Part shown: piece by piece, positions 1 through 9,037 of the stretch
Layout: each line of letters opens with the position of its first letter
How positions within the stretch are numbered: the first letter of the stretch is position 1
From: a virus
Taxonomy: Duplodnaviria > Heunggongvirae > Uroviricota > Caudoviricetes
Virus record (IMG/VR): IMGVR_UViG_2778261463_000001
Span: 1-9,037 of that record
Length of the DNA: 9,037 nt
Strand: one strand, 5' to 3'
The notes under the pieces: generated by a model
Seen by the model: only the letters and a program-made list of their open reading frames with translations
Database searches by the model: none
Told to the model about the DNA's origin: nothing
Translations under genes and position numbers: made by a program

Positions 1-154
1 TCGAAACGTACTCTCAACAGTTCGCTTAGGCATGGAAGTTTTGCGGCATTCTGGCTACACAATAACAAGGGAAGACTTACTCGTGGCTGCAACCCTACTA
101 GCTCAAAATTTATTCACACATGGTTACGCTTTGGGGAAATTATGAGGGGATCTC

Positions 155-394
155 TCAGCACTCAGCTCGCCCTTCTTCCCGTCTTTTGTCAATATATTCC
201 GCAAGATCCTGAATGTTGATGCAGCGTTTTGCTTTTTGTGATGTACCGATGCGATATGTAGGTACAGGCAACTTACAAGCGTTTGCTTTTGCTTCTGCTG
301 TGGCTGGACTCATACCAAAGTATTTTTGACTAACTGCTGAGAGTTCAATGTTTAGGGTATTGAATTCAGCCATCAGTAAAAACAAGGTGTTCAT
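155..394 (-). CDS. Excisionase-like small DNA-binding protein (Xis/AlpA-like); start uncertain (alternatives 421, 406, 373)
   Basis: Six-frame ORF 155..421. ATG at 394 has GGAG 6 nt upstream. Small basic protein (motifs KLPVPTYRIG, DLAEYIDKRR) as last gene of the leftward operon, the usual xis position. Family assignment from memory only. Confidence 0.5.
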   Translation of the reverse strand: MNTLFLLMAEFNTLNIELSAVSQKYFGMSPATAEAKANACKLPVPTYRIGTSQKAKRCINIQDLAEYIDKRREEGRAEC

Positions 395-430
395 AATTTT
401 CTCCATCAAAACCGGCTGCACCCGGGAAAA

Positions 431-1006
431 TCATAATTCTGTGCTGGTGGCAGGAATTAATTTCTGCCAGATAGCGGAAACATATTTTGCCTGATGACGA
501 GCATCAGCCAGGGCGTTGTGCCGTTCGCCATCGAAAGGCATGTCCATTTTGGGGTCGAATCCGATGGAACGCCCAAGCGTAACGATCGTGCGTACATCGT
601 GGTCATTCCAGTATGCCCACGGGCAGATTTGTCCTGCTCGCTCATAAGCTCCACGTAAAATTACGTTGTCGAAGGTGGCCCCGTTACCCCAGACTTTTAA
701 ATATTTCGTATTGGCTGCGTGCCGGTTAATGAAATGATTTAGTTCTGAGAGAGCATCGCTGATCGACAAAGTATCATCAATACAGATTGCAGCTCGTGCT
801 TCAGGGCTTTGTTTCAACCACCACAGGATGGTATCGCCGTCAGGTGTAGCTCCTTGCCCCATAGCACTTTCCAGGCTAACAACCGTATAGAATTCTTGTC
901 CGATGTCTCCGGTTTCTGGAGTGAAGAACACCGCGCCAATGGAAACGATCGGTGCATCCTTATTTTTCCCCATCGTCTCAAGGTCGATCATTAAGTTGTT
1001 CATCAC
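431..1006 (-). CDS. DnaQ-like (DEDD) 3'-5' exonuclease, prophage exodeoxyribonuclease-VIII-like
   Basis: 191-aa ORF with N-terminal MIDLETMG (Exo I D-x-E motif) and C-terminal H-x4-D (HNALADA). Start overlaps the upstream stop in ATGA (1003-1006). Confidence 0.7.
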   Translation of the reverse strand: MMNNLMIDLETMGKNKDAPIVSIGAVFFTPETGDIGQEFYTVVSLESAMGQGATPDGDTILWWLKQSPEARAAICIDDTLSISDALSELNHFINRHAANTKYLKVWGNGATFDNVILRGAYERAGQICPWAYWNDHDVRTIVTLGRSIGFDPKMDMPFDGERHNALADARHQAKYVSAIWQKLIPATSTEL

Positions 1007-1569
1007 TTCACCTCCTGCGGCGGTTCCGGTAGCGGCATCCAGTGAGTTGCTTGCTCAATACCATTACCCGGCTTAATCGTTGCATCTCCGCGCCGAAAGG
1101 TGCTTCCGGTATAGCGTGCGGAGCATATTAGCGGTTCAACCAGAGAGCTATCGAAATTCACCGAAATAAGCACGTTCTGGCCCTTTTCAGGCATTTGATC
1201 ACTACAGCTTATCCAACTATCCGGAGTTCCCGGAGAGTTGCCATTTACATCGAAGTTAGGCTCTGCGTCCTGAACTAGGAGGATGTAACCATTCTTGGCT
1301 GTATCAAGTTCTAACGCCTCGGTGACGGTGCCGAAATAGCGATTACCTAAATCAGCATCACAAGTGCTTACATCAATGGAAACTTCCATGCCTTCGATTA
1401 ATTCTGGCAAGTTGTAAGTTTGGCTTACAGGCTCGACTTCCAGTGAGGCTAACGCAATCCGTGCCAGTTCTTCCGCTTCTTCTGCTGGCAGTACAACGTT
1501 GCTACCAGGTCCGTATGTTTCGCGCCACTGCTTGATTGTCAGCAGTCGCTCTTTGGTAATAGTGGTCAT
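1003..1569 (-). CDS. DUF551-family prophage protein
   Basis: 188-aa ORF ending in THWMPLPEPP, the typical DUF551 C-terminal signature. AGGA 7 nt upstream of the ATG. ATGA overlap with the upstream gene at 1566-1569. Confidence 0.7.
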   Translation of the reverse strand: MTTITKERLLTIKQWRETYGPGSNVVLPAEEAEELARIALASLEVEPVSQTYNLPELIEGMEVSIDVSTCDADLGNRYFGTVTEALELDTAKNGYILLVQDAEPNFDVNGNSPGTPDSWISCSDQMPEKGQNVLISVNFDSSLVEPLICSARYTGSTFRRGDATIKPGNGIEQATHWMPLPEPPQEVK

Positions 1570-1775
1570 TTGTTAATCCTCAAAACTTTATGCCCGGGCG
1601 CAAAAGCACGCGTTTTGTCTTTGCTTATTCGCCAGCCATCCTTGCGCGCCTCTTTTGCACAGCCAGCCCATGACGTACCTATATACTCACCGAAGTCTGG
1701 CGACTTATATTTGCCATCTGTACACTGGAGGCAATCACAATAGAGATGCATGGTGTAACTTGCAGCGATAGCCAT
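1566..1775 (-). CDS. Small Cys-rich (putative zinc-binding) phage protein, 69 aa
   Basis: Internal ATG at 1775 of ORF 1566..1937, preceded by AGGAGA. The longer form would overlap the Ea22-like gene out of frame. Contains C-x-C-x2-C ... C cluster (HLYCDCLQC...GC). Confidence 0.55.
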   Translation of the reverse strand: MAIAASYTMHLYCDCLQCTDGKYKSPDFGEYIGTSWAGCAKEARKDGWRISKDKTRAFAPGHKVLRINK

Positions 1776-1776
1776 A

Positions 1777-2328
1777 TCACTCTCCTTTGATGCGAATGCC
1801 AGCGGCGCGCTCAGCTTCATTTTGTTCCCAAAACCACTTGTGAAGCGCCATAAGCTTTTCGTCAATCGGTGCATATTTGCGATTAAAGTAGGCCTGAGCA
1901 TCTTTCTCAGATTCGTCCGGCAATTCGCCTGGGCCAAACAGTGTGTTATAAATCCATGCCAGTCCGCTTTTAGCGTCGCCAGTCGATTGCCATTCGATAA
2001 TGGCAGCCTGCATGACCAGAATGTTTTTCCCGATTAATAGGTCCAGTTCTTTGTACCGGTTGCGGATGTATGCATTCTCGCTTTGTAATTCAGCGTTTCG
2101 CTTCTCTGCTGCTTCCAGCTCATCCAGCAGCGCCAAGACGGTGGCAGGATTGGCGGCGGCTATGAATCGTTTATTGGCGCGATTATCTGGTCCTGAGCAT
2201 GATGCTATGTAGTAATTGGCGTTCAGTCCGGCATCGGCAATTACTCCATGGTAGTCATCAGCACACCATTCGCCTGGTGTTGCATTTTCTGCCGCCAGTC
2301 GCAGAGCCTGATAGTTAATCTCGCTCAC
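1777..2328 (-). CDS. Ead/Ea22-like family protein
   Basis: 183-aa ORF with GTG start at 2328 preceded by AGGAGG (6-nt spacer). GTGA overlap with the upstream stop. Coiled-coil-like acidic protein typical of lambdoid ea22-like early genes (from memory). Confidence 0.6.
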   Translation of the reverse strand: MSEINYQALRLAAENATPGEWCADDYHGVIADAGLNANYYIASCSGPDNRANKRFIAAANPATVLALLDELEAAEKRNAELQSENAYIRNRYKELDLLIGKNILVMQAAIIEWQSTGDAKSGLAWIYNTLFGPGELPDESEKDAQAYFNRKYAPIDEKLMALHKWFWEQNEAERAAGIRIKGE

Positions 2329-2564
2329 TGGTTGCCTCCTTTACGGATCTGCGCTGCGATGCGCGAAAAAAAAGACTCCCGCGTATGACTGTTAAGAGCT
2401 GGCGAGAACGCTGCGTTAAGAACGGCAGCATCACAGCCGTCATCGATATAGAGCGCAATTTTTTTCTCCAGGCGCGCTTTGGCTTCCTGCAACTGCATAC
2501 CCCGGCACGCACGCGGGATATACTCAGCAATTTGAGCGATAGATTTTTCGTTCTGTTTAAACAT
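2325..2564 (-). CDS. Hypothetical small phage protein (79 aa)
   Basis: ORF with GAGGTG 4 nt upstream of the ATG at 2564. Packed in the operon with an 8-nt overlap to the upstream gene. No recognisable domain. Confidence 0.5.
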   Translation of the reverse strand: MFKQNEKSIAQIAEYIPRACRGMQLQEAKARLEKKIALYIDDGCDAAVLNAAFSPALNSHTRESFFSRIAAQIRKGGNQ

Positions 2565-2760
2565 GCTTCACCTCGATAGGCTTGATGCTGTCGATCAGCA
2601 GTCGGCGGCGCGTATTTTCTGCAAAGTGGCGGCGTCCGGTTTCTTTGTGGTAAAACTCGTTTTTTCCGACGACCCACATCCGCTTTGTCTGGTGCAGTTT
2701 TTTTACCTGCGGACCGTCTCGGGTGATAACAATTCCTGTATGAGTTTTTATCACGCTCAT
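2557..2760 (-). CDS. Hypothetical small basic phage protein (67 aa)
   Basis: ORF with GGAG 8 nt upstream of the ATG at 2760. ATGA overlap with the stop of the upstream gene (2757-2760). Confidence 0.5.
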   Translation of the reverse strand: MSVIKTHTGIVITRDGPQVKKLHQTKRMWVVGKNEFYHKETGRRHFAENTRRRLLIDSIKPIEVKHV

Positions 2761-3119
2761 TTCTTATTCTCCGGTGCTTTCGGCATTACTGCCCAGTGAG
2801 TGATATTGACGTTTTCAAGGTCCCCGACCTGAAATGTCCACTGCCATTCTCCGGTTTCTTTTTGTCCCCAGGTGTACCAGAGAGAACGCCAGCCAATTAG
2901 CCAGCCTTCTCCGTTAGCATCAAATAACAGAACACTTTCATTTGCTGGTGGCAGTTCAGCTGACACTGGTATTATTTTGTTTTCCAGTGCCGTACATTTA
3001 GCTTCAAGCGCATCGAATTTACGTACCAGGTACTCAGCATTTGTTTCGTTCACTTTCAGATCTCGCGGTATACATTTCCCGCGAAGAAACCCTTCCATTT
3101 CGAAAACATTCATGCGCAT
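2757..3119 (-). CDS. yfdS: YfdS-like prophage protein (120 aa) with DUF551-like C-terminus
   Basis: 120-aa ORF directly downstream of the yfdR-like gene. Length matches E. coli K-12 YfdS as I recall it. C-terminus ITHWAVMPKAPE resembles the DUF551 signature. Confidence 0.55.
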   Translation of the reverse strand: MRMNVFEMEGFLRGKCIPRDLKVNETNAEYLVRKFDALEAKCTALENKIIPVSAELPPANESVLLFDANGEGWLIGWRSLWYTWGQKETGEWQWTFQVGDLENVNITHWAVMPKAPENKK

Positions 3120-3646
3120 TTGCGTAACTCCGATAAATCGTTAAAACGTTCCATAAACATCCCGTAGGCATGACCCGGTGCCAGTGGAATCACGTTGAAC
3201 ATCTCTGTTGCCGGGATGCCTTCCAGTACAGGCCAGAAAGAGCCATCATCAAGCCCGAGATCGCGGCGTTCGGTTGCCAGCATGATGAGATCGGCATATT
3301 TCACGGGTGTACTCATAACTGGGGGTAACCCGTATTTCTCACGGATTACGGCGTCTATTTTTTCTTCCATCCGTTTATAGTCAGGAAGAAGGCGTTTCAG
3401 TGGTGCGGGAATGTCCTGGCAATACGCTTCTGTTGCATCATGCATTAACGCTTCAAAAGCAAATTCCTGCGGCACCAGCTGGCTGCAAAGAACCGCATGT
3501 TGGGCGACGCTGTAGAAGTGCGAAAGATGACCGGCAAAGCGACAGATATTTGAAAGGGAAACCGCGATATCGTTAATATCGATGTCGTCTTTATTTATCT
3601 TGTCATAATAAAAATGCTTCCCGGAAAAAGTTTTAATAAATGACAT
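3110..3646 (-). CDS. yfdR: HD-domain phosphohydrolase, YfdR-like (178 aa)
   Basis: ORF 3110..3673; ATG at 3646 preceded by GGAGAA gives 178 aa. Metal-binding motifs H-x..-HD-x..-D visible (HAVLCSQ...LMHDATEAYCQDIP). Length and context match K-12 YfdR. Confidence 0.7.
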   Translation of the reverse strand: MSFIKTFSGKHFYYDKINKDDIDINDIAVSLSNICRFAGHLSHFYSVAQHAVLCSQLVPQEFAFEALMHDATEAYCQDIPAPLKRLLPDYKRMEEKIDAVIREKYGLPPVMSTPVKYADLIMLATERRDLGLDDGSFWPVLEGIPATEMFNVIPLAPGHAYGMFMERFNDLSELRKCA

Positions 3647-3739
3647 TTTGTTCTCCACGTATATGCACTGCACCGCGCTGAATTCTGGTAAAAGGAAGCC
3701 CTCACCATCCGGTGATTATTGAGTTAATTACGTTTCCAT

Positions 3740-3761
3740 AAATGCCCCCGCAGGGGCATTT
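3740..3761 (-). promoter_or_regulatory. Intergenic GC-rich hairpin between the yfdQ-like and yfdR-like genes (9-bp perfect stem, 4-nt loop)
   Basis: AAATGCCCC-cgca-GGGGCATTT. Only 3 T/U follow the stem on either strand, so at most a weak terminator; could be an RNA stability or processing element. Confidence 0.35.
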
Positions 3762-3773
3762 GCAGTAATGAAA

Positions 3774-4598
3774 TCAGGCGGTGAAAGTACCAATAAAGGT
3801 TTCTACTTTGCTGTCTTTGAATTTCTCAACAAGCAGATCACGAAATTCGTTAGCCATTTCTTCCTGCACCGCTTCCAGCTGAATAATGCGCAGAACCAGT
3901 ACAGGACGATCGCCAGTGATAATGCTGAGGCGTAATTTAAACGGACGTTCTTTCAGACCTTCAAACGGAACGCATTTAAATTCAAATGCCACTGGCATAA
4001 TGTCTTTGGTCTTCGCTTCGACAGACTCCATCAGGGAGCGTTTGCCGCTGAAGTCATTATCTTCAAAATCAGCGGTCTGGTTTGCTTCAATCGTGATTTT
4101 ACGGACTGCCGCAGCCGCTTTTGTTGCTTGAATGGCGTCACCATTAGCATCAAAGCCCACAAGGTAGTCGGCCCAGTCTTCGATCCATTCTGCCAGTGAC
4201 TTCTGGGAGTTACGCTCGCCGTTAACAGACAACAGAGCAGAGAACGGTGCTGTCTTTTTCAGTTTGAGAGTGGCAGTGTTATCTGCGTGACCTGGCTCAT
4301 CAATAGTACCCAGGTTAAGCACACTGACGGCACGCATATTATCGGCATCGATAAAGCAGCGGGTGCCTTCATCTGCAAGATCTTTAGAATAACGGGTAAA
4401 ATCATCGATGCTGGCAGTGGAAAGTGCACCACGGAAACGGAAGCGATTTAAATTAAATTTTTCCAGATCATGAATGCGGAAATTCTCAGGCAATGCCACA
4501 GCATCGGCACCAATCTTACTGATAATTTCATTAACACCCTGAGCAGAAATAAGGGCATGGATTTGATTAATTGCGGTTGCGTCTAAGTTCTGAGACAT
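3774..4598 (-). CDS. yfdQ: YfdQ-like protein (DUF2303 family), 274 aa
   Basis: 274-aa ORF between the yfdP-like and yfdR-like genes. Length and gene order match the K-12 CPS-53 yfdP-yfdQ-yfdR-yfdS block (from memory). Confidence 0.65.
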
Positions 4599-4663
4599 AA
4601 TAAGTCCTCACTATATAAAGATATTCAGTGATGAGATAAATAATCAGTTTATTACGAACGATA

Positions 4664-5026
4664 TTAACGACCTGCTGCGCGGAGTTTTCCGTCAGGTTCA
4701 CCGGCAAGAGTCAGTAATTGTCCCTGGTCTTCCTGCAGAATAGTCAGGCGACCACCGCGATTGACATACATCGGCGTTTCGGTGGTGTCTTCTTCGGAAA
4801 TTTTCCCGCGGTTAGTCGGGCGAATATAAGAGAGTTTGTGTTTGATTTTCACACGGTTCTCATCAAATGGTTCGATTTCCAGGTTGAGTGAGACCTTACC
4901 TTTGGTTTTCGTGTTCATCACACCGGAAGCGACTTCACTGAGAACAGCGCCGATTTTGGTTTCAAATACGCCGCCGTCCAGCTCCCCGATAAATGCCTGC
5001 ACATCAGTACTGCGTTCGCTAGCCAT
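4664..5026 (-). CDS. yfdP: YfdP-like protein (120 aa), first gene of the pL operon
   Basis: ATG at 5026 preceded by GAGGAG (7-nt spacer) gives 120 aa (MASERSTDVQ...). The six-frame extension to a TTG at 5212 runs through a 15-bp perfect inverted repeat and lacks an RBS, so is judged non-coding. Confidence 0.6.
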   Translation of the reverse strand: MASERSTDVQAFIGELDGGVFETKIGAVLSEVASGVMNTKTKGKVSLNLEIEPFDENRVKIKHKLSYIRPTNRGKISEEDTTETPMYVNRGGRLTILQEDQGQLLTLAGEPDGKLRAAGR

Positions 5027-5074
5027 TTTGCTGCTCCTCATCATATCGACCCTGTAAGGTCGGTTGGTTTCTCC

Positions 5075-5163
5075 ACAAAACAGAGAAGAACACCTGCGGT
5101 GGCAGCCGCCCGGATGGATTGGGTTATGAGCCCGTCGTCCGGTGATGCTCTTCTCTGTTTTGT
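5075..5163 (-). repeat. 15-bp perfect inverted repeat (ACAAAACAGAGAAGA / TCTTCTCTGTTTTGT) enclosing 59 bp, in the 5' leader of the yfdP-like gene
   Basis: Arms at 5075-5089 and 5149-5163 are exact reverse complements. Expected number of such repeats by chance in 9 kb is about 0.001. Function (RNA stem, processing site or protein site) is inferred, not shown. Confidence 0.6.
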
Positions 5164-5209
5164 AAAAAGAGCGGTACCAGCCGGAAGCAAGTGTACAAAC
5201 TGGTACCGC
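5164..5209 (-). terminator. Terminator-like hairpin on the pL transcript: 10-bp perfect stem, 19-nt loop, then UCUUUUU
   Basis: GCGGTACCAG (5171-5180) and CTGGTACCGC (5200-5209) are exact reverse complements. On the minus strand the stem is followed immediately by a T-rich tract (plus 5164-5170). The loop is long for a classical intrinsic terminator. Confidence 0.35.
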
Positions 5210-5367
5210 CAAAGCAGTGGCTGTTGTGGTGACCGGTGCTGATCTCCGGCTTGCGGTTATTTCAGACTCTCACGGGCGTTTAATTGCCCCGCCGAACAGC
5301 TCTTTTCCGCAATAGCTGCAATGTCTTTCGCGCATCAGCCTGCGCATTCACCACAACTCTAAAAACA

Positions 5368-5420
5368 AATGTAGGATATCCAACATGTGAGTGTCAAGAG
5401 TTTATGTTGGTTATCCTACA
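5368..5420 (-). promoter_or_regulatory. OL/pL: leftward promoter (-35 TTGACA at 5397-5392, -10 TACATT at 5373-5368, 18-bp spacer) with two 16-bp dyad operators
   Basis: Operators TGTAGGATATCCAACA (5370-5385) and TGTTGGTTATCCTACA (5405-5420). The first is identical to OR1 in reverse complement. Promoter hexamers read on the minus strand. Confidence 0.6.
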
Positions 5421-5437
5421 TAAAAAGATAGGCTCAT

Positions 5438-5463
5438 AAAAAAACCGGGGATACCCCGGTTTT
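5438..5463 (-). terminator. Intrinsic terminator downstream of cI (bidirectional architecture)
   Basis: A7-CCGGGG-ATA-CCCCGG-T4 starting 20 nt past the cI stop. On the minus strand the 6-bp GC stem is followed by 7 U. Confidence 0.7.
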
Positions 5464-5483
5464 GCGATAGTGAGGAAGATGTG

Positions 5484-6137
5484 TCAAAAATCCATTATTA
5501 CTTGTTTGACAAGACCAACTATTCTGCAGTTCTCACCGCATTCAATAGTTTTATAGTTAGGATTTAGTGGGACGAGATACCTGTTCGGCCAGTCCTCAAC
5601 AAATTTTTTGAGTGTCGCTTCTTGCCCACCATTGATATGGGCAACAACGATTTTTCCGTTAATACACTCTGTATCAATAATATCTGGCTCTACGATAACG
5701 ATAGAACCTTCTGGTATCGATGGTGAGCCGAGGGGATTGGTCATTGAATCACCACGGACCCGTAGTGCAAATGCCATTTCTGATACAAGGGCGGTAGTAT
5801 AAACCCACTCTTCAGCATCTTCTTTCCTGACACCAGGCTCCGTCATTGTCCATGAACCCGCCTGAACCCACGAGATGAGGGGGACTTTTTTAACTGCGAA
5901 TATTTCAGGTTTTAGATTTATCTTTGGTTCAGGCGAGCCTTTTCCGCTAACAAGCCACAGAGGATCGCATTTAAGTGCGTTGGCTAGGGCTTGAAGGTTG
6001 GCTCCATTTGGTTGGTAGTCGTCCTTTTCCCATCCAGTAACCGTGACACGGTTCACACCAGTCAAATCAGCCAGTGCTTGTTGTGTCAGGTTCAGTTCTT
6101 TTCGCCTTTGGCGAATACGATCACTCATGTTCATCAT
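5484..6137 (-). CDS. cI: CI-type prophage repressor: N-terminal HTH (XRE family) plus C-terminal S24 LexA-like autopeptidase
   Basis: 217-aa ORF. HTH region LTQQALADLTGVNRVTVTGWE. Probable Ala-Gly cleavage site (VQAGSW). Catalytic Ser in RGDSM and downstream Lys (TLKKF). Divergent from cro across an operator region. Confidence 0.85.
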   Translation of the reverse strand: MMNMSDRIRQRRKELNLTQQALADLTGVNRVTVTGWEKDDYQPNGANLQALANALKCDPLWLVSGKGSPEPKINLKPEIFAVKKVPLISWVQAGSWTMTEPGVRKEDAEEWVYTTALVSEMAFALRVRGDSMTNPLGSPSIPEGSIVIVEPDIIDTECINGKIVVAHINGGQEATLKKFVEDWPNRYLVPLNPNYKTIECGENCRIVGLVKQVIMDF

Positions 6138-6201
6138 GTAGGCAATCCTACCACATGCCCATGTAGGATTCTTGACATTGGCATGTTGGATATCCTACAT
6201 T
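6137..6201. promoter_or_regulatory. OR/pR/pRM: three operators plus rightward promoter pR (-35 TTGACA 6172-6177, -10 TACATT 6196-6201, 18-bp spacer)
   Basis: OR1 TGTTGGATATCCTACA (6184-6199) lies between -35 and -10. OR2-like TGTAGGATTCTTGACA (6162-6177) overlaps the -35. OR3-like TGTAGGCAATCCTACC (6137-6152) abuts the cI start codon. Centre-to-centre spacing is 22-25 bp. Confidence 0.65.
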
Positions 6202-6232
6202 TCTGCTTAACGTAATTTAACGGGAGACAGAA

Positions 6233-6430
6233 ATGCGGAAATCCGACGTGATTAATTATTTCGGCGGAGTTTGTAAAACCGCCGAAGCCCTAGGTATTAA
6301 GCATCCGTCTGTTTCAGAGTGGCCTGAGATTATTCCTGAAGGCCGAGCGTACCAGTTAGAAAAAATTACTAACGGGAAACTGAAAGTTGACGTGTCTTTA
6401 TATCAAAAGACTAACAGTGCTGCGGCATAA
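6233..6430 (+). CDS. cro: Cro-like small HTH regulator (YdaS-type)
   Basis: 65-aa ORF with GGGAGA 5 nt upstream of the ATG, directly downstream of pR. HTH-like segment CKTAEALGIKHPSVSEW. Confidence 0.75.
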   Translation: MRKSDVINYFGGVCKTAEALGIKHPSVSEWPEIIPEGRAYQLEKITNGKLKVDVSLYQKTNSAAA

Positions 6431-6457
6431 AAACACCACAGAAATGAGGAATTAACC

Positions 6458-7036
6458 GTGGGTAAAGAACCTGAATGGAAAGTTGATAAACAACCAGCAT
6501 GGCTGGTGGCAGCAATACGAAGAACGATTGCTGATTTACCTCATGGCTATGAGGAAGCAGCAGAAATTCTTGGTTTGTATAAATCTGATGATATCACCCC
6601 AGCAAAAGATCAATTGCATAACAGACTGCGTAGCGGTGGGGATCAAATTTTTCCACTTGAGTGGGCCATGGTTTTACAGGATGCCAGTGGTACCAGGCAT
6701 GTAACAGATGCAATAGCCCGTCGTAGTAATGGGGTGTTTGTGCCGCTGGTGGTCATTGATGACATTGACAATGGTGACATTAATCAGCGGCTGATGGAGT
6801 CAATAGAATGGATTGGCAAGCATTCCCAGTACTTACGCAAGGCAACTGCTGATGGAGTTATTGACCTGGCTGAGCGTGAGCAAATCGAAGAGAACAGCTA
6901 CCAAGTAATGGCGAAGTGGCAGGAGCATTTAACACTGTTATTTCGTGTTTTTTGTGCGCCGGAAAAGAGTGACGCCCGCGAGTGTGCAGCTCCGGGCGTC
7001 GTGGCGTTTTGTGTCTGTGGAGAAACTAACGCATGA
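6458..7036 (+). CDS. CII-like regulator (YdaT-type), 192 aa
   Basis: GTG start at 6458 with GAGGA 8 nt upstream. Sits immediately after cro, as in the cI/YdaS/YdaT modules of Rac-like prophages. Family assignment from memory. Confidence 0.6.
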   Translation: MGKEPEWKVDKQPAWLVAAIRRTIADLPHGYEEAAEILGLYKSDDITPAKDQLHNRLRSGGDQIFPLEWAMVLQDASGTRHVTDAIARRSNGVFVPLVVIDDIDNGDINQRLMESIEWIGKHSQYLRKATADGVIDLAEREQIEENSYQVMAKWQEHLTLLFRVFCAPEKSDARECAAPGVVAFCVCGETNA

Positions 7037-8103
7037 ACAGTTTAACGGCAAATAACCGTTGGTCGCAACAGCTGGTGGTCCGCGTGGCTGAACACCTGTT
7101 GTTACGGCATGAATGCAGATTACCAAATCACCTGGCTGTAAGTAACCACAGAGAACTTTACCTGACTGTGGGGGGCGAGTTGTGCAGGAACTTAACCGCT
7201 GGTTTCGTGACGGAAGAGGGCTTTATGTTCATGTTATTCGTTGGGAACCAGAAACACAGCGCGTTATCTATCTTCGCAAAGACTACCCGCATGAGTGCTT
7301 TAGTCCTTTGTGGAAATTCAGGCGTGATTTTGTTGAGTGTGAAGGACCACCAGCACATTGATTCTGCCATTCCGGGACGTTACACTGTTCAGGCACCTTA
7401 TAAAGCGGGTGCCGGGATTGGCGTCCTGAAATTGATTACTGAGCATAACCGCGCTCATGCGGTTTTTTCGTGTCATGAGCATTGCTACGCCCAAATTATG
7501 GTGGGGCGTACAGGGCCGACTTCGGTCGGGCCGGGTTCGGTAGTCTCCGGTAACGCCAACCCTGTACGTCTCACCACCTCTGTGATTGGCGTCCCATGTG
7601 GTGAGTTTTCTAAAAAACTGACTACCGGGGCTGTCACCATGACTACTCTCCCAACCCTCTCTCAACCTGAAATTGCCATCGTTGATGGTCAGGCTGTTAC
7701 ATCTTCTTTGGCTGTTGCTGACTTCTTCTCTAAACGTCATGACGATGTTCTGAAAAAGATCCGCATTTTGGATTGTTCTCCAGAGTTTTGTGCCCGCAAT
7801 TTTGCGGAGACATCAATTTTGGTACGCCAGCCCAACGGCGGTACTCGCAAACTTCCTTGCTACCAAATCACACGCGACGGTTTTGCGTTTCTTGCTATGG
7901 GTTTCACGGGTAAACGTGCTGCCCAGTTCAAAGAGGCATATATCAATGCCTTTAACCAGATGGAGAAACAGCTTTCAAAGCCCGCTGTACCGAGCGACGT
8001 TGCACATAACGCCAGCGTTCTCTGTTCCTACATTTCATCAATTCATCAGGTCTGGCTGCAGCAGCTTTATCCCGAAAGGGAAGGTCGAGATCACTATCAG
8101 TAA
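7033..8103 (+). CDS. Rha-family phage regulatory protein (long form): ~200 N-terminal residues of unknown function fused in frame to a C-terminal pRha domain
   Basis: 356-codon open frame whose ATG overlaps the cII-like stop (ATGA at 7033-7036). Residues from about 7639 match the Rha core (KRHDDVLKKIR, ITRDGFAFLAMGFTGKRAAQFKEAYINAFNQME). Alternative starts at 7498 or 7639 would give 201 or 154 aa. Confidence 0.5.
   Translation: MNSLTANNRWSQQLVVRVAEHLLLRHECRLPNHLAVSNHRELYLTVGGELCRNLTAGFVTEEGFMFMLFVGNQKHSALSIFAKTTRMSALVLCGNSGVILLSVKDHQHIDSAIPGRYTVQAPYKAGAGIGVLKLITEHNRAHAVFSCHEHCYAQIMVGRTGPTSVGPGSVVSGNANPVRLTTSVIGVPCGEFSKKLTTGAVTMTTLPTLSQPEIAIVDGQAVTSSLAVADFFSKRHDDVLKKIRILDCSPEFCARNFAETSILVRQPNGGTRKLPCYQITRDGFAFLAMGFTGKRAAQFKEAYINAFNQMEKQLSKPAVPSDVAHNASVLCSYISSIHQVWLQQLYPEREGRDHYQ
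7447..7468 (+). terminator. Terminator-like hairpin (AACCGC-gctcat-GCGGTT followed by a T-run) inside the long ORF
   Basis: 6-bp stem with 6-nt loop; six consecutive T at 7463-7468. Weak stem, and it lies inside an open reading frame, so it may be fortuitous. Confidence 0.25.
7499..7576 (+). other. Strand-specific RNA stem-loop element: 17-bp closing stem with two G-U pairs enclosing a CCGAC-UUCG-GUCGG tetraloop hairpin
   Basis: 7499-7515 pairs with 7560-7576 (15 Watson-Crick plus 2 G-T pairs, so it folds only as plus-strand RNA). Inner hairpin 7516-7529. Tandem imperfect 15-nt repeat GGGCCGACTTCGGTC / GGGCCGGGTTCGGTA. Confidence 0.4.
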
Positions 8104-8153
8104 GTATGAGAAACCGGCGGGTGCAGCCGCCTGATTAAGAGGAGAAACGAAGT

Positions 8154-8963
8154 ATGAATAATCTGATAGTTATTGATGGTATTGAAGTTCGTCGTGATGC
8201 TTATGGGCGTTACAGCCTGAACGATCTGCACAGGGCAGCCGGGGGAGAACAAAAAAACCGCCCGAAATACTGGCTCTCCAATAAGCAAACCTGTGAATTG
8301 ATTGAACAACTTTTCACCGAGGGTGAAATTCCGCCTCTGGAACAAAATCAACCAGTTAGCGTCATTAATGGCGGAAATAACCAGGGGACGTATGTCTGCA
8401 AAGAACTGGTGTATGCCTATGCAATGTGGATCAGCCCGTCATTCCATCTGAAGGTGATCCGTACTTTCGATATGGTAACCAGCGCACCGGAAAAATTATC
8501 CGGGCAGGCTGCTGACAAGATGCAGGCTGGTGTGATTCTGCTGGACTTTATGCGCCGGGAGTTAAACCTGTCTAACTCTTCAGTGCTTGGTGCCTGTCAG
8601 AAACTCCAGGAGGCTGTTGGCTTACCGAATCTGGCACCGCGCTATGCCATTGATGCTCCTGCTGACGCGCCTGATGGCTCAAGTCGCCCTACGCTGTCGC
8701 TGAGTGCACTGCTGAAACAGTATGGTATCCGCCTTACGGCTAATCAGGCATATCACCAGATGGCGAAGCTGGGGATCGTTGAACAACGCGAACGATACAG
8801 CCGTACCACGATTAACAACATCAAAAAATTCTGGTCGCTGACAGCGAAAGGTTGCATGTTCGGCAAGAACATCACCAGTCCCGCAAATCCGCGCGAGACG
8901 CAGCCGCATTTCTTCGAATCCCGATTCCCTGAGCTGTTAAAGTTGCTCGATACCGTTCATTGA
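8154..8963 (+). CDS. KilA-N domain protein (putative antirepressor or host-interference protein), 269 aa
   Basis: AGGAG 9 nt upstream of the ATG. N-terminal KilA-N hallmarks: VIDGIEVRRDAYGRYSLNDLHRAAGGE...NRPKYWL and ELVYAYAMWISPSFHLKVIRTFD. Confidence 0.75.
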   Translation: MNNLIVIDGIEVRRDAYGRYSLNDLHRAAGGEQKNRPKYWLSNKQTCELIEQLFTEGEIPPLEQNQPVSVINGGNNQGTYVCKELVYAYAMWISPSFHLKVIRTFDMVTSAPEKLSGQAADKMQAGVILLDFMRRELNLSNSSVLGACQKLQEAVGLPNLAPRYAIDAPADAPDGSSRPTLSLSALLKQYGIRLTANQAYHQMAKLGIVEQRERYSRTTINNIKKFWSLTAKGCMFGKNITSPANPRETQPHFFESRFPELLKLLDTVH

Positions 8964-8970
8964 GGTGACC

Positions 8971-9037
8971 GTGAGAGCACTACTGACCCCTGAAATTGCC
9001 CCGCGTATGGGGATCGTATTGTTCAGGCCAGGTTCAG
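8971..9037 (+). CDS. 5' end of a further rightward gene (partial, runs off the window)
   Basis: GTG at 8971 preceded by GAGGTGA; open to the window edge (VRALLTPEIAPRMGIVLFRPGS...). Too short to assign a product. Confidence 0.3.
   Translation, partial: MRALLTPEIAPRMGIVLFRPGS

Follow-up and report, generated by a model that had tools for sequence, protein, structure and literature searches.

A conserved overlapping gene pair in enterobacterial prophages: DUF4222 out of frame with a ymfM-like gene, and a G-run as its likely ribosome-binding site

We describe here a conserved overlapping gene pair, previously undescribed, in a stretch of viral DNA of 9,037 nucleotides (nt) (Caudoviricetes; IMG/VR record IMGVR_UViG_2778261463_000001, positions 1 to 9,037). 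This stretch, called the window below, represents the early-right part of a lambdoid prophage of enterobacteria. One member of the pair is a ymfM-like open reading frame (ORF) in frame 1, starting at ATG 7033, and the other is a gene for a protein of 59 amino acids (aa) of the DUF4222 family, at 7182-7361 in another frame. The two-frame layout is conserved across enterobacterial prophages, and a run of six G residues (G6, 7170-7175) lies just upstream of the second gene. We consider it quite probable that the two genes share DNA in different frames, with no frameshift needed, and that the G-run acts as ribosome-binding site. This reading builds on what was observed directly, namely the family membership of the genes, the conserved start of DUF4222, the stability of the G-run, the purifying selection on DUF4222 and the avoidance of stop codons in the second frame. 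Full-text literature searches found no description of a ymfM/DUF4222 overlap.

The DUF4222 frame (frame 3) is open from 7146, has its first start codon at GTG 7182 and ends at 7361. Its translation (M-QELNR...) is exactly the 59-aa peptide that an earlier reading made from the letters alone (the sequence-only reading) had quoted for this alternative frame and likened faintly to small phage DUF-type proteins. The likeness proved sound. The product matches Pfam DUF4222 (PF13973) with 51.1 bits against a cut-off of 27 (E = 9.5e-14; residues 3-52 on positions 4-51 of the 53 of the profile), and phrog_1343 end to end (1-59/59, E = 1e-36). Only 75 relatives were found among 1.84 billion cluster representatives, mostly of 52-86 aa and with the domain starting at residues 1-8, and 16-17 aligned family members share the start column, most of them being 59 aa long (Escherichia, Salmonella, Citrobacter, Kosakonia and others). 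The same 180-nt coding sequence (CDS) is annotated in E. coli genomes by the Prokaryotic Genome Annotation Pipeline (PGAP), and AlphaFold gives a confident model with a small beta-barrel fold (predicted local distance difference test score, pLDDT, 84.7).

The start of this gene is conserved too. In 32 species-level loci and in the prophage e14 of K-12, the start codon is found at the same aligned position (ATG in 29, GTG or TTG in 7, with three e14 repeats counted). The same 34-locus set has a purine-rich motif of Shine-Dalgarno (SD) type (GGAGG, AAGGAG, GGGGGAG) 5-10 nt 5' of the start, and an in-frame stop 0-117 nt upstream of it. Constraint was measured as the ratio of nonsynonymous to synonymous proportions (pN/pS), here plain pairwise Nei-Gojobori proportions without phylogenetic correction and for loci that are related within a class. 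For DUF4222 the ratio is 0.13 in the window class, 0.17 across genera and 0.23 among window-type loci, while the other two frames give 1.1-2.5. Over the overlap, frame 1 has values of 1.15-1.7 against 0.13-0.23 in the DUF4222 frame. The window-class values (1.47 against 0.13) agree with the earlier remark that the main-frame translation of these bases is not protein-like. As judged from these comparisons, DUF4222 appears to be an independently initiated 59-aa protein under strong purifying selection and the constrained product of the locus.

The G6 run is indeed present at 7170-7175, as had been noted, and is the sole run of six or more G or C in the window, where 1.26 would be expected by chance. 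A single such run in 9 kb is thus about what chance would provide, and the interest lies in its position rather than its existence. The predicted duplex of the run with the anti-SD sequence at the 16S 3' end has an energy of -9.3 kcal/mol at a spacing of 5 nt, the strongest among the SD motifs of the window that were tested; the predicted values by run length are -8.4 kcal/mol for G5, -9.3 for G6 and -10.5 for G7. In the alignment, the run falls on AAGGAGA in e14 and on GGAGG-type motifs in 32 other species. Most likely, the G6 run is the ribosome-binding site of an independently started DUF4222 gene that would lie inside an older ymfM-related frame, and as such the run itself would be an ordinary ribosome-binding site. 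The best-supported view is that it would be constrained twice, as SD element for GTG 7182 and as part of the codons V46-G47-G48 of frame 1 (7168-7176).

The length of the run bears on three other explanations raised by the sequence-only reading. The 120 IMG/VR loci, captured by a pattern that left 3-10 bases free at the run, comprise 118 with G6, one with G7 and one with GGGTGG. About 990 complete E. coli genome records carry the segment, and about 99% of them have G6; G7 was matched exactly in 6 of them and G5 in 0, both counts being lower bounds for alleles with other flank variants. The -1 offset of the two frames is found in 34 of 34 diverged loci. G6 with a -1 offset is therefore the standard state, by which a sequencing indel or a recent frameshift is ruled out.

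It is accordingly hardly credible that G7 is the intact form and G6 a damaged one, whether through an indel made in sequencing or assembly or through a recent frameshift mutation of an ancestral gene for 109 aa. It is true that one extra G gives a protein of 109 aa ending at 7361, as had been predicted, and that natural G7 alleles with this clean ORF exist (confirmed in loci L007-L009). Their protein P0001 is the predicted fusion (with 97% identity along the whole query, in more than 40 short-read contigs), and other sporadic fusions occur in the databases (P0002-4, P0044, P0045, P0060). However, G6 prevails in independent complete genomes and viral contigs alike, and the out-of-frame layout is common to the 34 diverged loci although their spacers differ. 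The database fusions join at different positions, as scattered indels would, PGAP still annotates the 59-aa CDS in the G7 genomes, and the two parts are separate genes in distant relatives and may even have another gene inserted between them. The fusion as a true gene was also considered in its own right and rejected: the 109-aa query did find fused ORFs, but they are rare and have variable joints, and the largest clusters are of 59 aa.

We give next to no weight to the possibility that the run is a slipped-strand phase switch between G6 with separate products and G7 with the fusion. A homopolymer does stand at the frame junction, and G7 arose at least two times (codon 2 being CAG in one case and CGG in the other), but only about 0.6% of the complete genomes have G7 and none has an exact G5. 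Five of the six G7 genomes moreover carry the same linked single-nucleotide polymorphism, a CAG-to-CGG change; this indicates clonal inheritance and makes phase variation unlikely. A six-base tract is also short for a contingency locus. The sequence-only reading had further held that a consistent G6 in all homologues, with conservation only of the main-frame protein, would speak against the alternative frame; the G6 is consistent, but it is the alternative-frame protein that is conserved and has database matches.

Programmed -1 frameshift sites are known from dnaX, from orfAB of IS3/IS911 and from the phage tail chaperones G/GT. The present locus resembles them in the -1 offset of its frames, in the homopolymeric heptamer at the junction and in the plausible size of the fusion. 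Slippage on G_GGG_GGC would yield the 109-aa fusion beside the separate products: the run has the formal pattern X_XXY_YYZ in the zero frame, and since the DUF4222 frame is open from 7146, a slip would give a fusion, with the junction peptide TVGGRVVQELNR. The relative frame is the same in all homologues, and the genomic G7 alleles show that the fusion is tolerated. This explanation is nevertheless very unlikely. DUF4222 has its own SD and start codon in every homologue, at the same aligned position, which the downstream frame of such sites does not have. Beyond the run, selection keeps the zero frame open over more than 50 codons, and a frameshift site has no need of this.

The heptamer itself is, in addition, both poor and not conserved. 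In e14 the sequence is GTGGGT followed by TGA in the DUF4222 frame, and the best-sampled and largest allele class alternates between GGGGGT and GGGTGT. The closest cross-species relative, from C. braakii (L130), has GGGGGATGAGTC GTG, that is, G5 with an in-frame TGA just upstream of the start, so that a slip there would terminate at once. Folding of 7160-7260 gives -29.5 kcal/mol, with z = -0.91 and 30 of 200 shuffles at least as stable, and thus offers no stimulator downstream. The pattern G_GG.G_GG.N is not among the efficient E. coli motifs or in the list of candidate patterns, and G_GG.G_GG.U gives 0.018% without a stimulator (PMC4066793).

Independent initiation of DUF4222 within a second, maintained frame being the preferred reading, we turn to that second frame. 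The ATG at 7033 is coupled to the ymfL-like gene upstream, whose stop codon TGA 7034-7036 overlaps it as ATGA 7033-7036, as the sequence-only reading had it, and it is preceded by a GGAG SD. The first 49 codons (7033-7181, plus strand) do not overlap DUF4222, and the next part (7183-7362) overlaps it out of frame. Each of the 34 diverged loci, K-12 e14 among them, has an ORF of the frame-1 type with the same -1 offset. In 32 loci its start lies 149-179 nt before DUF4222 (the other two have a later first ATG); in most the start reads MNSLT..., and in all but the window and L130 the ORF ends at +157 to +165, counted from the DUF4222 start. The allele classes are homologous, and when the ymfM-like N-termini are aligned, M1, Q12 and V46 are invariant and G47 is nearly so; the most conserved motif, Val46-Gly47, is the one encoded by GTG GGG at the run. 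In three other allele classes the non-overlapping N-terminal part has pN/pS values of 0.34, 0.48 and 0.46, against about 0.9-1.4 in the other frames. The ymfL C-terminus was uninformative as a pN/pS control because of indels.

By position and sequence, the 7033 frame is the counterpart of e14 ymfM. In e14 (L005 1577-1935) the annotated 112-aa ymfM shares its DNA, in a different frame, with a DUF4222 gene that PGAP recognizes and that has 59 aa, a TTG start and the SD AAGGAG. As in the window, ymfM is ATGA-coupled to ymfL, starts with MNSLT..., has the V-G motif and overlaps a 59-aa DUF4222 gene in the -1 frame, and phrog_1170 covers both. The two differ in that e14 ymfM stops at +157, 9 nt before a replication gene, whereas the window ORF continues to 356 codons. 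The window lineage has also lost 9 codons by deletion, so that its V-G codons adjoin the start of DUF4222. Furthermore, phrog_1170 matches e14 YmfM over its whole length (1-112/112) and the window ORF only over residues 47-98 (E = 8e-9), the overlapping part; a full-length ymfM profile match of 108-113 aa is absent, and so is the usual stop. An example of the frame-1 peptide of the window ORF is NLTAGFVTEEGF. PHROGs keeps the two frames as separate families (1170 and 1343), and searches of Pfam and NCBIfam gave no family model for ymfM-like proteins.

The overlapping part of frame 1 is open to a degree that is not seen in the third frame. In 35 of 35 unique DUF4222 genes the +1 frame has no stop over nt 1-156, while the +2 frame has 1-7 stops; with the codon usage of E. 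coli, any one sequence would be open in this way with a probability of about 0.05. Codons for Leu, Val or Ile that end in TA or TG were found at 0 of 144 positions where a +1 stop would arise and at 50 of 143 positions elsewhere in the same genes (Fisher p = 4e-18, a value that overstates independence, as the test treats related sequences as independent). Rare codons (ATA, TTA or CTA) supply the usual ymfM stop at +157, which falls within the SD of the next gene, in the frame of that gene and 9 nt short of its ATG. In the window, codon 7339-7341 is GTG where most homologues outside the window class have this stop; it is missing in L130 too.

Distant relatives provide a control. In L173-L175 (1319-1680; in L174, 772-957 and 1501-1680) the homologue of the ymfM N-terminus is a separate gene of 61 aa. 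Its end overlaps the DUF4222 start as ATGA in L173 and L175; in L174 an inserted gene for 184 aa separates the two. The DUF4222 genes of these separate-gene relatives have +1 stops at +1, +52 and +139. The separate genes suggest a lost stop codon as the origin of the overlap. On this comparative evidence, the frame would be kept open by selection without constraint on the encoded sequence; it may represent a loosely constrained functional tail, or it may deliver ribosomes to the next gene.

Several points, besides the relatedness of the sequences in the stop-avoidance test, weigh against this reading. The amino-acid sequence of the overlapping frame-1 tail is unconstrained everywhere. In the window-type lineage the N-terminal 47 codons also lack frame-specific constraint (pN/pS 0.76 in all frames; 0.49 among close alleles against 0.75-0.88 in the other frames), so that the frame-1 product may be degenerate there. 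Finally, frame 1 is broken by the G7 alleles, which have survived in at least two lineages; its continuity is thus not indispensable.

These same points, together with the lack of frame-1 constraint over the RNA genes isrK and C4 farther downstream, are what favours the view that only DUF4222 is real and that the frame-1 ORF over it, and indeed the whole 356-codon ORF, is an untranslated or functionless by-product. We regard this as rather unlikely. A by-product would not call for the conserved ATGA-coupled start, the strong, context-specific avoidance of stops and the conserved position of the rare-codon stop, nor for purifying selection on the N-terminal part in three other classes, and the control lineage is without these features. 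Expression of e14 ymfM DNA also causes filamentation, although the frames were not separated in that work. A spurious ymfM ORF is rejected family-wide by the stop avoidance and the pN/pS values, though the window lineage may have one. For the window, we infer that frame 1 is translated.

The reading that two genes share this DNA then suggests the following course of events. Ribosomes would bind at the G-run by pairing with the anti-SD 5-6 nt upstream of GTG 7182 and make DUF4222, while others, coupled from ymfL through the ATGA start at 7033, would cross DUF4222 one base out of register. The latter frame, a separate 61-aa gene in the distant relatives, would read through all of DUF4222 in the enterobacterial lineage, with selection keeping it free of stops up to its normal end 9 nt before the ATG of the next gene. 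In the window lineage the stop would have been lost and an isrK-C4-Rha module inserted, and ribosomes would continue into Rha.

This module stands in the window in place of the replication gene, on the plus strand. It consists of an isrK-type small RNA gene with its terminator (7393-7469; Rfam RF01394, 59.3 bits against a gathering score of 50), in which a terminator-like hairpin at 7447-7464 is followed by a T run; a C4-type antisense RNA gene (7494-7581; RF01695, 82.3 bits against 45); and the coding region of a Rha-family regulator, antirepressor-like, from a conserved ATG (7639-8103; Pfam Phage_pRha, E = 1.4e-27; TIGR02681). As the +157 stop is missing and the module is inserted, frame 1 runs for 356 codons into Rha. 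The complete mechanical ORF (7033-8103) thus begins at the ATGA, takes in DUF4222, isrK and C4, and reaches into the Rha domain. Frame 1 is open in nearly all of about 110 window-class loci, over 278-389 codons, and in some genomes PGAP names the equivalent long ORF a Rha-family protein of about 382-387 aa.

Over the isrK-C4 segment there is no sign of amino-acid constraint: pN/pS is 0.91 in all frames, and the variable columns are spread as 57/57/55 over the codon positions. The allele groups of the segment diverge to about 51% ungapped identity to the window, most of them having 66-83%. Not one of the 11 allele groups has a frame-1 stop between 7362 and 7638; for the other five frames the counts of stops are 0-7.

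A part of this openness has a known counterpart. The c4-icd-ant genes of immI in P1 and P7 form a comparable module. In the window, ATG 7498, inside the 5' end of C4, is a leader start of the orf45 type, in frame with the Rha ATG 7639 and with no stop between the two; the start Met of Rha is conserved in all alleles, so that Rha could be of 201 aa or of 154 aa. The orf45 of Gifsy-1 starts in a C4-like region, is translated, and is conserved in nucleotide but not in amino-acid sequence, and the Gifsy-1 antirepressor requires its translation (PMC4825925). The window thus resembles the Gifsy-1 isrK-orf45-anrP system in having isrK and C4 RNAs, a leader ORF from the C4 region, likewise kept in its nucleotides and not in its amino acids, and an antirepressor-like gene. 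It differs in that its leader is in frame with Rha without a stop, which is likewise the case for the leader and antirepressor of S. dysenteriae (PMC4825925), and in that the leader is continuous with the upstream ymfM-like frame. The published coupling through orf45 (PMC4825925) explains part of the openness of frame 1 over isrK-C4, but not the part upstream of the orf45-type ATG.

The Pfam match to 'Ash' (PF10554) at 7381-7668 coincides with isrK and C4, and substitutions there are without codon periodicity. 'Ash' was therefore rejected as a real protein domain at this place, and the label 'ash family protein' looks like translated RNA genes plus an orf45-type leader.

A promoter scan of 6900-7700 gave no match at threshold. 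A manual, sub-threshold reading offers TTGATT-17 nt-TACACT at 7358-7393 as a possible isrK promoter, with a start near 7393; its -35 element would overlap the DUF4222 stop codon.

Some variants of the long ORF were also seen. That of the window has 356 codons, compared with 381-389 in most relatives (L001, L003 and L004 compared), and a gap of 50 nt separates it from a KilA-N gene, where the relatives have an ATGA-coupled small gene; this shorter ORF and different neighbour indicate that the Rha C-terminus differs in the window. In L168-L170 (1501-1737), 78-aa ORFs that are ATGA-coupled at both ends join a ymfM-like N-terminus in frame to the ~29 C-terminal residues of phrog_821 Rha proteins, as if DUF4222-isrK-C4-Rha had been deleted in frame. 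In L164 (1484-2317) the DUF4222 gene comes after a Rha-like gene and not after ymfL; its +1 frame begins only 17 nt ahead of DUF4222 and still runs for 277 codons via the Ash region into Rha.

Nested phage genes with their own start in another frame are well known from lambda Rz/Rz1 and from the overprinted genes of phiX174, and the present arrangement belongs with such pairs, already known as a kind. Here too, a small gene with its own SD and start lies inside an ORF of another frame and both frames are maintained. The differences are that here the embedded gene is strongly conserved and the tail of the enclosing one is unconstrained and only kept open, and that distant relatives have two adjacent genes. 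The family is thereby a clean natural case of a frame that is kept open by selection while the encoded sequence is free, with a related lineage serving as control.

It is important to point out what this means for annotation and for the function assigned to ymfM. Annotation pipelines treat this DNA in three incompatible ways, as DUF4222 plus 'ash', as a single 380-aa 'Rha', or (in K-12) as ymfM alone. The present evidence points to DUF4222 as the constrained product, and to a long ORF that is kept open but without an amino-acid signature over the overlap and the RNA genes. The e14 gene ymfM (b1148) has been proposed to be SfiC, the SOS-induced division inhibitor of the prophage (bioRxiv 10.1101/2020.11.19.390815). 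In the searched text of that work, filamentation is described for the cloned ymfM ORF, which also contains the DUF4222 SD and 53 of the 59 DUF4222 codons, and no frame-specific mutant is reported (bioRxiv 10.1101/2020.11.19.390815). The block of the FtsZ ring is therefore assignable to either product, and DUF4222 is by far the better conserved of the two in that clone. A more far-reaching version of our reading would be a selected dual-coding locus in which the ymfM frame stays open mainly for the travel of ribosomes to the next gene, in the window over isrK and C4 into Rha, bypassing the riboregulator, and in which the SOS division block of YmfM (SfiC) might come from the DUF4222 beta-barrel protein. 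We put this forward as a tentative and rather doubtful proposal.

The genes upstream fit the same prophage region. A LexA-family repressor is encoded on the minus strand at 5484-6137 and is followed by a cro-like gene at 6233-6430. The ymfL-family (CII-like) regulator occupies 6458-7036 on the plus strand (NCBIfam NF041471 phage_reg_YmfL, E = 6.5e-53; phrog_101, E = 2e-61; Pfam Phage_CP76), and in the homologous E. coli loci PGAP names it ymfL/YmfL family. The KilA-N gene lies downstream of the Rha ORF that ends at 8103. On the minus strand, an antisense ORF of 70 codons at 7158-7370 mirrors the DUF4222 gene and has a counterpart of 90 codons in e14; it is probably a shadow ORF.

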